A stretch of 64,000 bases of DNA from Vicinamibacteria bacterium (GCA_963422395.1 OY729431.1:2144001-2208000), one strand, 5' to 3'. Positions 29,293 through 37,494 are shown, numbered from the stretch's first letter. A program made the numbers and translations. The notes: generated by a model from the letters alone, not told the origin.

Positions 29293-31755
29293 CTATCCCC
29301 AAGGTTGGGAGCGCGCGCCGTATTCGCTTCCGGCGAACCCGAGGTCGAACCCGAGCGGCTCCCAGCAGACTTCCGCGCCGGTGCCGCCGCGGCGTTCCGC
29401 CGACATTTCGTCCGGTTGCGGGGAGATCGACGCCAGCGGCTCCCAGTCCGTCGTCGAGCCGTCGGTGACGGCGGCGGCCGGAAACCTGGCGTAGCGCGTG
29501 TAAACGGCCATGCCGGGGCCGATGGCGGCCTGGGCGAGGTCCACCGGGGCGATGTTCCCGGTGCGGAGGAGGCGGAGCGCCGGGGGGAGTTCGTCCCGGA
29601 GCGCGGTCAGGAAATCGCGGAGGGCGGCGGCGGGGGCGTCCGCCGGGCGGCGGCGGCAGACGAGCACGATGCTGGAAGCGAGCGCGTTGGTGCCCATGCC
29701 GATCATTCGGTTGGAGAGTTCCGTGCGCATCGGCCAGGTGCCGGTGACGGCGAAGCCGGACTCGATCACGGCGTCGAGGAAGGTCTCCCAGCCGGTGCTG
29801 GATGTGCTGCCGTCCCCCTTCGTCTCGGACTGCTTGAAGGCGTAGTAGATGGTGACCGGGAAGCCCGGGTGCGCCTGCTCCGCGAGGCGGCGCATCGCGC
29901 GGGTCATGCCTTCAAGGAAGAAGGCCTCGGCCGCCTTCTTGCTGCCGTGGCGGTAGGGGGTGGCGACGAGTTCGTCGGCCTTCGGCGCCGCGAGGGTGGC
30001 GAAGAGCTCGGGGAAAACCGGTCTCAGCGAGCGCCGCAGCCAGACGTAGAAGAAGTCGGAGAGGTCGGCGTAGCCGATGTTGTCGTAGTAGGGCGGGTCG
30101 GTCGAGACGACTTCGTGGCTGCTCAATTCTTGACGTTGAGCATCACACTGAGTGGAGACTCCTTTCGTCCAACGGCCGAGGTTTGGAATAGATTGAACTG
30201 TCCAATCAAAGAGGTTTCGTGTGCTTCCTCCCCGTCCACTAAACGGGTTTGCTTCCGGGTAATCCCACATCATCGGAATCGCTTGGCGTGCAAAGAGATT
30301 ACTGAGCTGCTGATTCGCACCTTGCCATCGACCAAGCGCAGTGTAGTAATCGCAGAACCTATCTGCGGCGAAGGCCAGATACAGGGAGACCGCCTCGGCA
30401 TACGCGGGCGCGCCGGTTCCGCCTTCGCGGAGGGGCCGGCCGTCGTCGGGGAGTCCGGCCCGCACCGCATCGCGCCGCGCCCGCTCCCGCGCCCCGCCCA
30501 CCAGATCCGAGAAGGTCGTCAGGGCCGCGAGCTGGCGAGGGGTGAACAGGTCGGCCCAGGTGAAGAACCCATACCCCCGCCCGCTCACCAGATTCGTCGT
30601 CTCCCGATTCATCGGTTCGTCGGGCTGCCAGTTGGGCCGAGCCCCACGGGCCGCTTCCTCGTGTTCCGGTGTCGGAGGCAGATAGACCCGCCCCCGGGGG
30701 CCCTGCGCCGCGACCGCCAGCAGCCGCGCGCCCATCCTCCCGGCCATGCTCTCCGCCTTGATGTGCTTGTCAGAGAGCGGCGAGCCTGACATCAGGCACC
30801 GGAAGTTCGCCCCCCGCGACAGTTTGGTTCCCCGCTTCGCCGCATCGGGCGGCGGGCCGACCCGCACCGCGAACCGGTAGCCCTGCTCCTCGATCACCGG
30901 CTCGACCCAGGCCTCCTTCCCCCGCTTCGTCGAGAGCATGAACGTCGAAGCGAGCGGCACCTCCACCTCGGAGAACGCCGGGTTCGGGCTCCGCACCGTC
31001 CGCGCCCACAGCCACGCGATCACCGTCAGCTCCCGCCCCGCGCAGCCCGCGAGATCGGGGCGCTCCCGGACCAGCTCCGGCGTGACCCGCACCTTCGGGT
31101 AGAGACGGCCGATCCGCCGCTCCGCCTCGCCCCGCATCCACTTCCCGTAGTGCCGCACGTCCTCGGCGAGCCCGGCAGCCCCCTTCCACGCCTTCCCGGC
31201 GATCGTGGCCTCGCTCCGCGTCACCGGGTTCACCGGCGGCCGGCCGGCGAACTTCGGCGGGATCTCGATCATCGCCTTGTTGATGAGCACCGCCACCGGG
31301 TTCAGGTCCGAGGCGTGCGCTTCGAGCCCCAGGCGCTGCGCCTCGAGCGGCAGCGACCCCCCGCCCGCGAACGGGTCGTGGAACGCAGGCAGCCGGCTGC
31401 GGTCGAACAGCTCGGCGGCGCGGGGGTGGTCCGCGTTCGCCGCGCAGGCCCGCCGCCAGCTCGCCCGGATCTCGGCCCGCGCCCGCTCCAGCACCTTCTC
31501 GTTCGTGGTGTTCTCCCACTTCACCAGTTCCTGGACGATCCCGAACAGCCGCATGCGCTCGAGATCCGCCGCCGCTTCGGCCAGCGTCAGCTCCCGTTGC
31601 GGTCCCGAGCGGTCCCGCCGCGCCCACCACAGATGCAGGGTGGAGGGGTGGCCGTGGCGGATGGACTTCTCCCTCGCGCCCGCGGCGTTGATCTCATCGA
31701 GGGGCAGCGATACCTCGATCAGCTTCCGACGCGCACGGGCCGCCGATGAGTCCAT
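29293..31755 (-). CDS. DUF1156 adenine DNA methyltransferase, copy 1 (open 5' end, lacks about 197 C-terminal aa)
   Basis: 'KLIEVSLPL', 'HLWWARR', motif I 'DPFAGGG', motif IV 'TDPPYY'; identity to copy 2 stops at 29489 and is followed by an unrelated tail. Confidence 0.85.
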
Positions 31756-31761
31756 GGACCG

Positions 31762-34510: not shown

Positions 34511-34637
34511 AGGCGCCGTTCATGCATCCAAGATCCGGTGGTGCAGCGGCTGCGGGAGAGAGCCGCGCGTCGGGGAGCAGCGGTGATGGCGTGCTGCCGT
34601 GCGGCAGCCGGTTTCTGTTCCTGACGGCAAGCGTCTG

Positions 34638-37494
34638 GTGAGAGCGGCGGTGCCGGCGGCCCGTGCGCGTCGGAAGCTGATCGAGGTATCGCTGCCCCTC
34701 GATGAGATCAACGCCGCGGGCGCGAGGGAGAAGTCCATCCGCCACGGCCACCCCTCCACCCTGCATCTGTGGTGGGCGCGGCGGCCGCTCGGCCGCAACG
34801 GGGACGCTGGCCGAAGCGGCGGCGGATCTCGAGCGCATGCGGCTGTTCGGGATCGTCCAGGAACTGGTGAAGTGGGAGAACACCACGAACGAGAAGGTGC
34901 TGGAGCGGGCGCGGGCCGAGATCCGGGCGAGCTGGCGGCGGGCCTGCGCGGCGAACGCGGACCACCCCCGCGCCGCCGAGCTGTTCGACCGCAACCGGCT
35001 GCCTGCGTTCCACGACCCGTTCGCGGGCGGGGGGTCGCTGCCGCTCGAGGCGCAGCGCCTGGGGCTCGAAGCGCACGCCTCGGACCTGAACCCGGTGGCG
35101 GTGCTCATCAACAAGGCGATGATCGAGATCCCGCCGAAGTTCGCCGGCCGGCCGCCGGTGAACCCGGTGACGCGGAGCGAGGCCACGATCGCCGGGAAGG
35201 CGTGGAAGGGGGCTGCCGGGCTCGCCGAGGACGTGCGGCACTACGGGAAGTGGATGCGGGGCGAGGCGGAGCGGCGGATCGGCCGTCTCTACCCGAAGAT
35301 GCGGGTCACGCCGGAGCTGGTCCGGGAGCGCCCCGATCTCGCGGGCTGCGCGGGGCGGGAGCTGACGGTGATCGCGTGGCTGTGGGCGCGGACGGTGCGG
35401 AGCCCGAACCCGGCGTTCTCCGAGGTGGAGGTGCCGCTCGCTTCGACGTTCATGCTCTCGACGAAGCGGGGGAAGGAGGCCTGGGTCGAGCCGGAGATCG
35501 AGGGGCGGGGCTACCGGTTCGCGGTGCGGGTCGGCCCGCCGCCCGACGCGGCGAAGCGGGGAACCAAACTGGGCGGTAGCGGCAGCTCGTTTTTCTGCCT
35601 GATGTCGGGTACCCCGATGCCGTTCGACTATCTCCGTTCCCAGGGGAAGGCCGGGAGGATGGGCGCGCGGCTGCTGGCGGTCGCGGCGCAGGGCCCCCGG
35701 GGGCGGATCTATCTGCCTCCGACGCCGGAACACGAGGAGGCCGCTGTGCGGGGGGAACCCGCATGGAAGCCCGAGGCGGATCTCCCGGAGCGAGCGCTCG
35801 GTTTTCGGGTTCAGGAATATGGAATGACCCGGTGGGCCGACCTGTTCACCCCTCGCCAGCTCGCGGCCCTGACGACCTTCTCGGACCTGGTGGGCGGGGC
35901 GCGGGAGCGGGCGCGGCGCGATGCGGTGCGGGCCGGGCTCCCCGACGACGGCCGGCCCCTCCGCGAAGGCGGAACCGGCGCGCCCGCGTATGCCGAGGCG
36001 GTCTCCCTGTATCTGGGCGTTGGCGTTGATCGCCTCGCTGACCGGCTCTCGACGATCTCAAGTTGGGATGTCGGTCGCGAGGCGATTCGGAACACCTTCG
36101 GTCGGCAAGCGATTCCCATGACGTGGGACTTTGCCGAAGCGAACCCCTTCTCGGGTTCAAGCGGCAGCTTCGCTTCGCTCTTGCGATGGACCGAGAAATT
36201 CCTGTTGGAGACGCGCCCCACGATCTCCGGCACCAGCGCTCAACTAGACGGCGCATCCCAAACCGCATCCGTGGACAGGGTCGTCTCGACGGACCCGCCC
36301 TACTACGACAACATCGGCTACGCGGACCTCTCCGACTTCTTCTACGTCTGGCTGCGCCGGTCGCTGAGACCGGTTTTCCCCGAGCTCTTCGCCACCCTCG
36401 CGGCGCCGAAGGCCGACGAACTCGTCGCCACCCCCTACCGCCACGGCAGCAAGAAGGCGGCCGAGGCTTTCTTCCTCGACGGGATGGCCCGCGCGATGCG
36501 CCGCCTCGCGGAGCAGGCGCACCCGGGCTTCCCGGTCACCATCTACTACGCCTTCAAGCAGTCCGAGACGAAGGGGGACGGCAGCACATCCAGCACCGGC
36601 TGGGAGACCTTCCTCGACGCCGTGATCGAGTCCGGCTTCGCCGTCACCGGCACCTGGCCGATGCGCACGGAACTCTCCAACCGAATGATCGGCATGGGCA
36701 CCAACGCGCTCGCTTCCAGCATCGTGCTCGTCTGCCGCCGCCGCCCGGCGGACGCCCCCGCCGCCGCCCTCCGCGATTTCCTGACCGCGCTCCGGGACGA
36801 ACTCCCCCCGGCGCTCCGCCTCCTCCGCACCGGGAACATCGCCCCGGTGGACCTCGCCCAGGCCGCCATCGGCCCCGGCATGGCCGTTTACACGCGCTAC
36901 GCGCGGGTGCTCGACCCGGCGGGCGAGCGGGTTTCGGTGCGGGACGCGCTGGCGCGCATCAACCGCACGCTCGACGAGGTGCTGGCCGAGCAGGAGGGGG
37001 ACTTCGACGAGGACAGCCGCTGGGCGATGGCCTGGTTCGACGAATACGGCTTCACGGAAGGCCCCTACGGAGCCGCCGAGACCCTCTCCAAGGCCAAGAA
37101 CACGAGCGTCGAAGGCATGGTCGAAGCCGGCATCCTCCGGTCGCAGCGCGGCAAGGTTCGGCTGAACGCTCCCCGGGACCTCCCCGAAGAGTGGGACCCG
37201 TCCGCCGCCGGCGCTGGCAGGCCCGCGGTGTGGAAGGTCGTGCATCACCTGATCCGCGCTCTGGACGCCGACGGGGAAGCCGGGGCGGCGCGCCTGGCCG
37301 CCCGCTTGGGCGCCGCCGCCGAACCCGCGCGCGATCTCTGCTACCGGCTCTACACGTTGTGCGAGCGCAAGAAGCGGCCAGCCGAAGCGCTCGCTTACAA
37401 CACCCTCGTGAAGAGCTGGCCGGAAATCATGCGGCTCTCCCGGACCGACGAAATCCACCAGCAGGCGCTCCTGCCGCTCGGCGGCCCCTCGTAG
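34638..37494 (+). pseudogene. DUF1156 adenine DNA methyltransferase, copy 2 (frameshift at about 34790-34805, intact C-terminus)
   Basis: The N-terminus 'KLIEVSLPL...HLWWARRPL' is in the 34599 frame; the rest (DPFAGGG, TDPPYY, full C-terminus) is in the 34702 frame. Confidence 0.8.

Follow-up and report, generated by a model that had tools for sequence, protein, structure and literature searches.

Introduction

The name Hma comes from Payne et al. 2021 (PMC8565338), who recorded the system in 26 phyla; it has been renamed the Type-1 DUF499-centred BREX-related system, with a spread of 2446 taxa (PMC12839542), and is among the most widespread candidate defence systems. In the published descriptions considered here, Hma consists of an SNF2-nuclease helicase (HmaA), a DUF1156 N6-methylase (HmaB), and a (HEPN-)DUF499 ATPase (HmaC), and a single hmaB lies on the same strand as the other genes. 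Here we describe an hma locus that encodes the same three kinds of protein but carries two hmaB copies in inverted orientation around a pair of tyrosine recombinase genes. The locus lies in a 64,000-nucleotide (nt) stretch of a Vicinamibacteria bacterium genome (GCA_963422395.1 OY729431.1:2144001-2208000), called the window below, in which all positions are counted. Sequence comparisons suggest, with somewhat better than even probability, that the module family represented by this locus is a shufflon-type switch built into the Hma (Type-1 BREX-related) defence system.

Programmed inversion is established for HsdS, BREX-1 PglX, DISARM DrmMI, and Cj0031-type enzymes, and in some PglX states without a C-terminus the recombinase becomes part of the operon (PMC9881135). 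Integrases near hma genes have been read as mobility markers (PMC11232893). The initial annotation of this locus had stated that no phase-variable inverton was described for the DUF499+DUF1156+SNF2 family. Our literature search agrees with this statement: no published description of programmed inversion for Hma or DUF1156 was found in the main texts, although supplementary tables may list such cases. None of the papers found to mention DUF1156 concerns inversion, and recombinase, inversion, and phase variation are not mentioned in the surveyed parts of PMC12839542 and PMC8565338. A curated Hma survey kept only single-copy, one-strand gene sets (bioRxiv 10.1101/2024.01.29.577857). Because it demanded each hma gene once and on one strand, the inverted-pair architecture would be excluded, and surveys of this design will miss such loci.

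Two outward-facing hmaB copies enclose two recombinase genes

Two DUF1156 methyltransferase copies had been annotated as pointing outwards in a long inverted repeat of near-identical blocks separated by divergent segments, and both a repeat search and a global alignment confirmed this arrangement. The two hmaB copies form inverted arms made of four near-identical blocks (A-D) and three divergent segments (V1-V3). The arms and the core between them are laid out as follows.

29293..31755, minus strand: hmaB copy 1 (tail-less arm), an uninterrupted open reading frame (ORF) of 820 amino acids with an ATG at 31755, matching positions 6-783 of the 967-position HmaB profile
29293-29488, minus strand: unique stub of copy 1
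29489-30111: block D of copy 1
30112-30360: segment V3 of copy 1
30361-30558: block C of copy 1
30559-30649: segment V2 of copy 1
30650-30752: block B of copy 1
30753-30819: segment V1 of copy 1
30820-31745: block A of copy 1
31762..32346, minus strand: vapC, with a Pfam PIN match (5.8e-13) at residues 61-181 of the listed ORF
32169..33788, minus strand: int1-phd, a single ORF with Pfam Phage_integrase, Phage_int_M, and PhdYeFM_antitox domains; phd is its last 86 amino acids (32169-32429)
33449..34483, minus strand: int2, with a Pfam Phage_integrase domain, 40% identical to int1
34484..34653, no strand: spacer from the int2 start to the inner end of the right repeat arm
34599..37494, plus strand: hmaB copy 2 (tailed arm), with the DUF1156 N-terminus from a GTG at 34599 (frame 0) and a 930-amino-acid ORF at 34702-37494
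34654-35571: block A of copy 2
35572-35641: segment V1 of copy 2
35642-35744: block B of copy 2
35745-35832: segment V2 of copy 2
35833-36030: block C of copy 2
36031-36279: segment V3 of copy 2
36280-36902: block D of copy 2
36903-37494: tail of copy 2

In the repeat search, block A was recovered as two matches (30820-31588=34803-35571, 769 nt, 99%; 31615-31745=34654-34784, 131 nt, 100%), followed by block B (30650-30752=35642-35744, 103 nt, 93%), block C (30361-30558=35833-36030, 198 nt, 96%), and block D (29489-30111=36280-36902, 623 nt, 99%). Global alignment placed the divergent segments of copy 2 at about 35572-35648 (V1), about 35739-35832 (V2), and about 36017-36279 (V3), and it revealed three small indels (2+2+4 = 8 nt) within block A, which are present in copy 1 at 31589-31614 and missing from copy 2 at 34785-34802. 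Because of these indels, the DUF1156 N-terminus of copy 2 is out of frame with the 930-amino-acid ORF. The frameshift annotated near 34800 is thus borne out in the assembled sequence, but copy 2 need not be start-less, since an in-frame GTG lies at 34599, upstream of the DUF1156 motif. Copy 1 has the open 5' end ascribed to it, and its homology to copy 2 ends at 29489, the position matching residue 733 of the 930-amino-acid ORF, so that about 197 C-terminal residues are absent from copy 1.

The annotated assignment to a DUF499/DUF1156/SNF2 defence system was supported by Pfam domains and by PADLOC, which assigned the neighbouring HmaA and HmaC together with both HmaB copies to an Hma system. 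The HmaB copies scored 1206 and 1360 bits, and FAGGGS and DPPYY motifs are present.

The core between the arms spans 2.9 kb and encodes Int2, Int1-Phd, and VapC, all on the minus strand. As annotated, it holds two catalytically complete tyrosine recombinases and a Phd-VapC pair: besides the Pfam domains, the catalytic residues R-K-H-R-H-Y were invariant in an alignment of eight Int2 sequences and in one of eight Int1 sequences together with Int2, and those of Int2 are R203, K226, H286, R289, H312, and Y321. The toxin-antitoxin pair consists of a PhdYeFM antitoxin (PF02604, with an NCBIfam phd_fam match) followed by a PIN toxin (PF01850), and the ATG of hmaB copy 1 lies 7 nt past the vapC stop. 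In what follows, G000 is this genome, L011 is the locus of genome G015, L010 a region of G013, and L015 that of G004. Comparison with the 136-amino-acid G015 orthologue (L011) indicates that vapC probably starts near 32175. The likely start of int1 is at MSPPTF near 33452, and Int2 orthologues start near residue 46-49, about 34339 in the window. A scan of the spacer found 0 sigma-70-like promoters, which is uninformative in a high-GC organism. We also observed that the Int1-Phd ORF is continuous, without a stop, both here and in G015 (L011 10546-11820; 65% identity); the recombinase and the antitoxin may be genuinely fused, or the continuity may only reflect stop-poor high-GC sequence.

The inverted module recurs in two phyla

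The initial annotation had proposed that related genomes be searched for inverted DUF1156 pairs flanking integrases, and such pairs were found. Among 41 related genomes, 18 contain hmaB, and five of these 18 (G000, G013, G015, G005, and G012) carry an inverted pair within 12 kb; G008 has a tandem, not inverted, pair (L014). Orthologues of both Int1 and Int2 (60-71% identity) lie beside or between the copies in all five inverted pairs that were fetched, and the tandem pair L014 has neither. A search of 28 family genomes for Int2 orthologues (E<=1e-60) gave 10 places in 8 of them; seven of these places are inverted hmaB loci, including L018 at a contig end, two lie on short contigs (about 3 kb), and the tenth is in G004. 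With the Int2 alignment, a GTDB-wide pattern scan returned at least 80 loci. Among the matches listed, inverted hmaB copies flank five of the top seven: L025 from Bryobacterales, L026 from Vicinamibacteria (the same as the L010 region, G013), L028 and L030 from Longimicrobiales, and L031 from a metagenome-assembled genome (MAG) of Acidobacteriota. In total, the module is present at 11 loci in nine genomes from two phyla, Acidobacteriota and Gemmatimonadota, and in the relatives it comprises two inverted hmaB halves, one C-terminal tail, and orthologues of both recombinases.

A FastTree phylogeny of 170 recombinase rows placed the 11 Hma-linked Int2 sequences in one clade of 13 (Shimodaira-Hasegawa-like support 98), and the 11 Hma-linked Int1 sequences likewise fell into one clade of 13 (support 95). 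Each clade also takes in two further sequences, one from the G004 pair and one from a pair on a 3.3-kb contig.

These loci bear on whether the inverted duplication is an assembly artefact in which two strain haplotypes of one hmaB were misjoined. The genome does look like a metagenome-assembled single contig, and public sequencing runs hold several related hmaB variants. However, the same architecture, truncation point, and recombinase pair are found at 10 other loci in eight other assemblies, and the two arms here have different unique outer flanks, which makes a misjoin extremely improbable.

The distribution of the module also raises the question of whether the hmaB halves, the recombinase pair, and the toxin-antitoxin genes excise and integrate as one element whose ends are the arms. 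The module occurs in different phyla, G013 has three copies of which two have 99.7% identical cores, the order of the flanking hma genes varies among loci, and L013 is a cyclic permutation of the same parts, as would arise from a circular intermediate. The arms are nevertheless coding halves of a defence gene with a conserved block and cassette structure and one conserved truncation point, and hmaA and/or hmaC are adjacent at 9 of the 11 loci (none was seen within the fetched 20 kb at L009 and L010). For tyrosine recombinases, inverted repeats favour inversion and direct repeats favour excision, and the repeats here are inverted. We consider such a mobile cassette quite improbable.

As a separate observation, G008 contains 22 hmaB matches (e.g. 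C1:4190959-4193634); several are full-length, each with a single in-frame TGA, and many half-length hmaB pairs are present as well. This pattern suggests massive hmaB amplification or a recurrent break point.

The recombinase operon is flipped and cassettes are re-assorted among relatives

Four loci share identical flanks, namely hmaA and hmaC on the plus strand, the tail-less arm on the minus strand, and the tailed arm on the plus strand. Among them, the window, L018, and L025 have the recombinase operon on the minus strand; L011 (G015), the closest relative, has it on the plus strand. Comparison of V2 in the window with V2 in L011 gave identities of 0.66 and 0.60 arm to arm and 0.37-0.39 across arms. 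Thus, the V2 cassettes have kept their arms, and the window and L011 differ by an inversion with end points inside block A. More widely, five loci (L011, L012, L028, L030, and L031) have the operon reading toward the tailed copy and three (the window, L018, and L025) have it reading toward the tail-less one. The other three loci are not counted in either group: both copies of L009 are tailed, the operon of L010 faces a copy whose match ends at residue 844, and the copies of L013 are convergent, so that inversion there would swap the tails instead, with the same functional result.

The variable segments are re-assorted as well. In the window, L011, and L013, a V1/V2 type that we call alpha occupies the tailed arm; in L025, L028, and L031, it occupies the tail-less arm. 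L012_t combines a V1 of type alpha with a V2 of type beta. V3 types are common to loci that differ in V2 (window_f and L030_f, L012_f and L025_t, L009_2 and L013_f). The relatives thus show neither a fixed orientation nor an absence of mosaic alleles: the core is flipped in L011, and the cassettes have been shuffled between arms and loci.

In the relatives, both hmaB 5' halves have start codons, and the general design would therefore swap alleles on one tail rather than switch a gene from off to on. In G015, a VapC-type toxin gene precedes each hmaB 5' half. The second of these PIN genes (L011 8987-9427, minus strand) has an RHH-type antitoxin gene upstream and ends at the start of the tail-less hmaB, so that a toxin-antitoxin pair stands before either hmaB 5' end.

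Variable segments lie in an internal insert of HmaB

We calculated within-locus identity profiles for the 10 loci with both hmaB copies (20 copies). The same profile was obtained in 10 of 10 loci, with block A high, V1/V2 low (about 20-65%), block C high, V3 low (about 14-70%), and the late part of block D high. The two versions of block C at a locus agree at 95-100% in 7 of the 10 loci, compared with 67-76% between loci, and the last 170 nt or so of D are 83-100% identical within all 10; the first part of D is variable in most relatives and homogenised in the window. In every tail-less copy, likeness to the partner breaks off at one shared codon, after ..YTRY (residue 733). At 70% nt identity, the 20 copies fall into 20 types of V3 and 18 of V1/V2, and in a family-wide alignment of 76 sequences entropy is highest at V2 and in the second half of V3. 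The low GC content of V3 in copy 1 was considered as a sign of foreign origin and rejected, because V3 has a GC content of 0.52-0.62 in all 20 copies, compared with 0.65-0.81 in the blocks.

An AlphaFold2 (AF2) model of the tailed HmaB copy was built from 76 sequences, with a mean predicted local distance difference test (pLDDT) score of 89.5 and a predicted template modelling (pTM) score of 0.88. In this model, V1 (291-316), V2 (346-377), and V3 (439-526) lie between Rossmann strand 2 (E124-128) and the DPPY motif (531-534), and the repeat ends at a domain boundary, at the junction to a helical C-terminal region. Block C is predicted to form two long helices (H384-410 and H427-448); in HsdS shufflons, variable recognition modules are separated by conserved helices where crossovers occur. 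BR-type methylases are described as carrying a target recognition domain (TRD) insert after core strand 2 (PMC12839542). Because the hmaB cassettes sit where BR methylases carry this insert, an altered methylation and defence specificity is a likely outcome of their exchange.

Proposed mechanism and its weighing

In the module as we read it, hmaB exists as two inverted 5' halves of about 2.2 kb each (to residue 733), of which one arm alone has the tail of about 197 amino acids, with two tandem tyrosine recombinase genes between the halves, accompanied here by Phd-VapC. Crossovers in homogenised blocks would invert the segment between them; the candidate blocks are A, B, C, and D in the window and C and the last 170 nt or so of D in all relatives. 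Each inversion would change the 5' half, and the combination of V1/V2 and V3, joined to the tail, and the likely outcome would be a changed methylation, and hence defence, specificity. The sequences show the anatomy, its conservation, inversion over evolutionary time, and the re-assortment of cassettes. We infer that Int1 and Int2 catalyse the inversions, that inversion goes on inside populations, and that DNA specificity is set by the cassettes.

With respect to the window, the initial annotation had argued that a crossover in A past the frameshift, or in B, C, or D, joins the start of copy 1 to the C-terminus of copy 2 and so restores a full-length gene. Its geometry holds: a crossover in A distal to the indels, or in B, C, or D, would place the intact 5' half of copy 1 before the tail of copy 2 on the plus strand and give a full-length, though DUF1156-deleted, hmaB. 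The rescue of a broken gene does not carry over to the family and is peculiar to this genome. The 11 loci in nine genomes, the flipped core in the closest relative, the re-assorted cassettes, and the recombinase clade tied to hmaB pairs speak strongly for a module dedicated to inversion and shuffling. A fuller version of the proposal, in which a domesticated recombinase pair drives a multi-site hmaB shufflon that re-assorts V1/V2 and V3 on one tail, makes Hma specificity phase-variable, and has spread as a unit between Acidobacteriota and Gemmatimonadota, seems to us an evenly balanced proposition.

Several kinds of observation weigh against a shufflon-type switch. The first concerns the recombinases. 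A shared short core site was sought in blocks C and D, and only a low-complexity coincidence (CCCGACGACG-type) was found, which we rejected as a common recombination site. Without a shared core site, the crossovers could be of the RecA type, and dependence on the recombinases is putative, suggested by their association with the hmaB pairs. Moreover, 74 of the best 80 Int2 loci have no hmaB match (L041 has a weak 26% match only), and the G004 pair (L015), although a clade member, has no hmaB nearby, nor were inverted repeats or hma genes found around it. Among the matches listed, the tandem Int2-Int1 pair is widespread without hmaB, mostly in MAGs of Alphaproteobacteria, and looks mobile.

The missing core site and the spread of the pair without hmaB suit a passive arrangement, in which the hmaB halves recombine by general homologous recombination or gene conversion and the recombinases and toxin-antitoxin genes are passengers from a mobile element. 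The blocks, at 90-926 nt, are long enough for RecA, the pair occurs in several copies per genome elsewhere, and NCBIfam gave sub-threshold Xer and integron-integrase matches only and no invertase family. Against passive recombination, both recombinases, with intact catalytic residues, are present at 11 of 11 inverted-hmaB loci in two phyla and form one clade per paralogue, and the family genomes with single or tandem hmaB (G003, G007, G008, and G014) have no Int2 orthologue at E<=1e-60. The high within-locus identity of block C extends even to loci where A has drifted to 60-85% (L028 and L030), which fits preferred crossover places. We regard passive recombination as unlikely.

The alphaproteobacterial pairs deserve mention in their own right. 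They (L027, L032-L057, and others) are multi-copy, with for example five loci in one assembly alike over about 6 kb at 86%, and the copies are only 78-86% alike. These two-recombinase loci look like an undescribed mobile element family.

The remaining general points against the shufflon-type reading concern HmaB itself. The methylase activity and self-marking role of HmaB are putative, and in Halomonas HmaA alone defended against T4 and phage passaged through HmaB was unprotected, as far as these matters are covered in PMC11232893. A PDB sequence search with HmaB gave 0 hits, and Foldseek against PDB gave 0 matches at E<=0.001, with generic methyltransferase cores only and no DNA-bound template for judging contact between cassettes and DNA.

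State of the locus in this genome

Whether the module still works in the window is a separate question, on which our confidence is lower than for the shufflon-type reading of the family. In the assembled state, the intact half, linked to the int operon, leads into the stub that lacks a tail, and the tail follows the frameshifted half, so that no normal full-length HmaB is encoded now. In addition, both copies lack the stretch PLA.ARAV.F.Q.VDDP, found in 16 of the 16 other copies where the region was located, and are 12-50 residues shorter in that DUF1156 stretch than the other copies. The Pfam DUF1156 matches of the local copies cover model positions 2-33/35 of 73 only. Copy 2 is out of frame across the deletion, and copy 1 is kept in frame only by its 8 extra nt. 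Because each copy is missing part of a conserved domain, the module may no longer be active here; the locus may be in an 'off' or intermediate state, or decaying.

The genes outside the arms also enter into this question.

22202..25861, plus strand: hmaA, an intact ORF of 1219 amino acids encoding an SNF2 helicase with a C-terminal NOV_C (nuclease-type) domain
25909..29247, plus strand: hmaC, an intact ORF of 1112 amino acids encoding a HEPN(Swt1)-DUF499 AAA+ ATPase
37493..37795, plus strand: hmaA fragment (residues 283-383), 98% identical to the local HmaA and abutting the hmaB stop

HmaA has Pfam SNF2-rel_dom, Helicase_C, and NOV_C domains and a PADLOC score of 1636.9 bits over profile positions 2-1171 of 1176; HmaC has HEPN_Swt1 and DUF499 domains and scores 1072.8 bits.

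One tentative account, with an appreciable chance that nonetheless falls clearly short of even, is that the local module is a dead remnant in which the DUF1156 deletion inactivated hmaB and the frameshift is ordinary decay. The loss of the conserved stretch from both copies and the broken frame of copy 2 speak for it, as do the signs of rearrangement given by the hmaA fragment and the duplicated junction around an inserted IetAS system (described below) and the presence of other hmaB, hmaC, and hmaA paralogues in the genome. On the other side, the arms agree at 99-100% over the 926 nt of block A and the 623 nt of block D, a homogenisation that no relative equals, and this near-perfect identity points to recent exchange between the arms. 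Copy 1 retains an 820-amino-acid ORF with its frame held across the deletion, hmaA, hmaC, int1, and int2 are intact ORFs, and the recombinase catalytic residues are present.

Four public runs contain 0.73-0.86 of the sampled words and one further run 0.36. The short Logan contigs of four runs (X2, X3, X5, and X6) stop at the edges of the repeat blocks (for example, the pieces 28500-29519 and 32649-34683) and none bridges a block; orientation and isoforms are therefore unreadable either way. The samples also hold related hmaB variants, with loose contig ends at 30105, 34786, and 36353. A metagenome scan with Int2 returned 6 distant relatives only (29-42% identity) and no same-species contig in another state. 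Separately, contigs of runs X2 (depth 16) and X3 (depth 8.4) join 32083 to 37356 on opposite strands, that is, the phd/vapC boundary to the hmaB C-terminal region; no block crossover yields such an arrangement, and the join may come from another strain in the sample.

Downstream of the arms, a perfect 300-nt direct repeat (37412-37711=42949-43248), made of the last 80 nt or so of hmaB and the hmaA fragment (residues 283-383), has its second copy 5.5 kb downstream and brackets an IetA/IetS system (38059-42825). The junction of the hmaB end to hmaA residue 283 looks like a scar of tandem duplication or single-crossover integration, and because it is repeated around IetA/IetS, we regard the surroundings as rearranged. 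A stray hmaB tail fragment of 78 nt (44307-44384), 95% like hmaB codons of about 839-864 (37216-37293), lies about 1 kb downstream of the second repeat copy. The IetS-like subtilase has 1234 amino acids, and its middle third (40855-42069, residues 579-983) has three further genomic copies (G000:C1:1960765-1961979, 2715721-2716935, and 1888250-1889583; 90-100% amino acid identity), so that it may be a repeated or mobile insert within the gene. Further Hma parts lie elsewhere in G000, at C1:793513-800717, 2855706-2858606, 1285730-1288152, and 682820-702352. One is an hmaC-hmaA pair that has no hmaB beside it (57-58% identity), and another is a full-length hmaB on its own, 2 Mb away (58-61%); there are also an hmaB that is broken and a distant DUF499/DUF1156/helicase set.

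Comparison with known systems

As in type I hsdS shufflons (pneumococcal SpnIII/ivr with CreX/PsrA), several repeat pairs at the hmaB loci would give several alleles, and a tyrosine recombinase gene is adjacent. In the hsdS case, however, specificity resides in a separate subunit, the silent copies lack a 5' end, and there is one recombinase, whereas the hmaB modules lie inside the methylase. The Int2-Int1 pair resembles RIT elements ('recombinase in trio') in having paralogous tandem tyrosine recombinases, and its wider family is multi-copy in some genomes. It differs from RIT, which has three genes, in having two genes and no defined terminal inverted repeats, and its Hma clade is tied to a host gene pair.

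If the shufflon-type reading is true, it gives the first genomic argument that the internal insert of HmaB sets the sequence specificity of Hma: the conserved shuffling of discrete HmaB parts points to them as determinants of specificity that are subject to diversifying selection. The loci also offer a natural series of hmaB alleles for testing HmaB recognition.

Class 1 DISARM drmMI is similar in that inversions target the methylase of a helicase-containing defence system, and differs in its unrelated methylase and recombinase families and its gene layout, as far as it is described in PMC9881135. The closest parallel is BREX-1 pglX of Lacticaseibacillus rhamnosus (Milman et al. 2023, PMC9881135), for which the parts of that study considered here describe an inverted partial methylase copy, a tyrosine recombinase in the invertible region, conserved blocks alternating with variable parts, and C-terminus-less intermediate states. 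Inversion of pglX has been shown in populations by long reads (PMC9881135), whereas the hmaB case is known here from assembled sequences. Where pglX has a C-terminal TRD and one recombinase, HmaB has an internal insert and two tandem recombinases; moreover, the invertible segment takes in both hmaB 5' halves together with the recombinase operon, and it is the 3' end that the partial hmaB lacks. Programmed inversion of defence methylases is thus known, and what is new here is the DUF1156/HmaB family, the two recombinases, the movable 5' halves, and the fixed tail.

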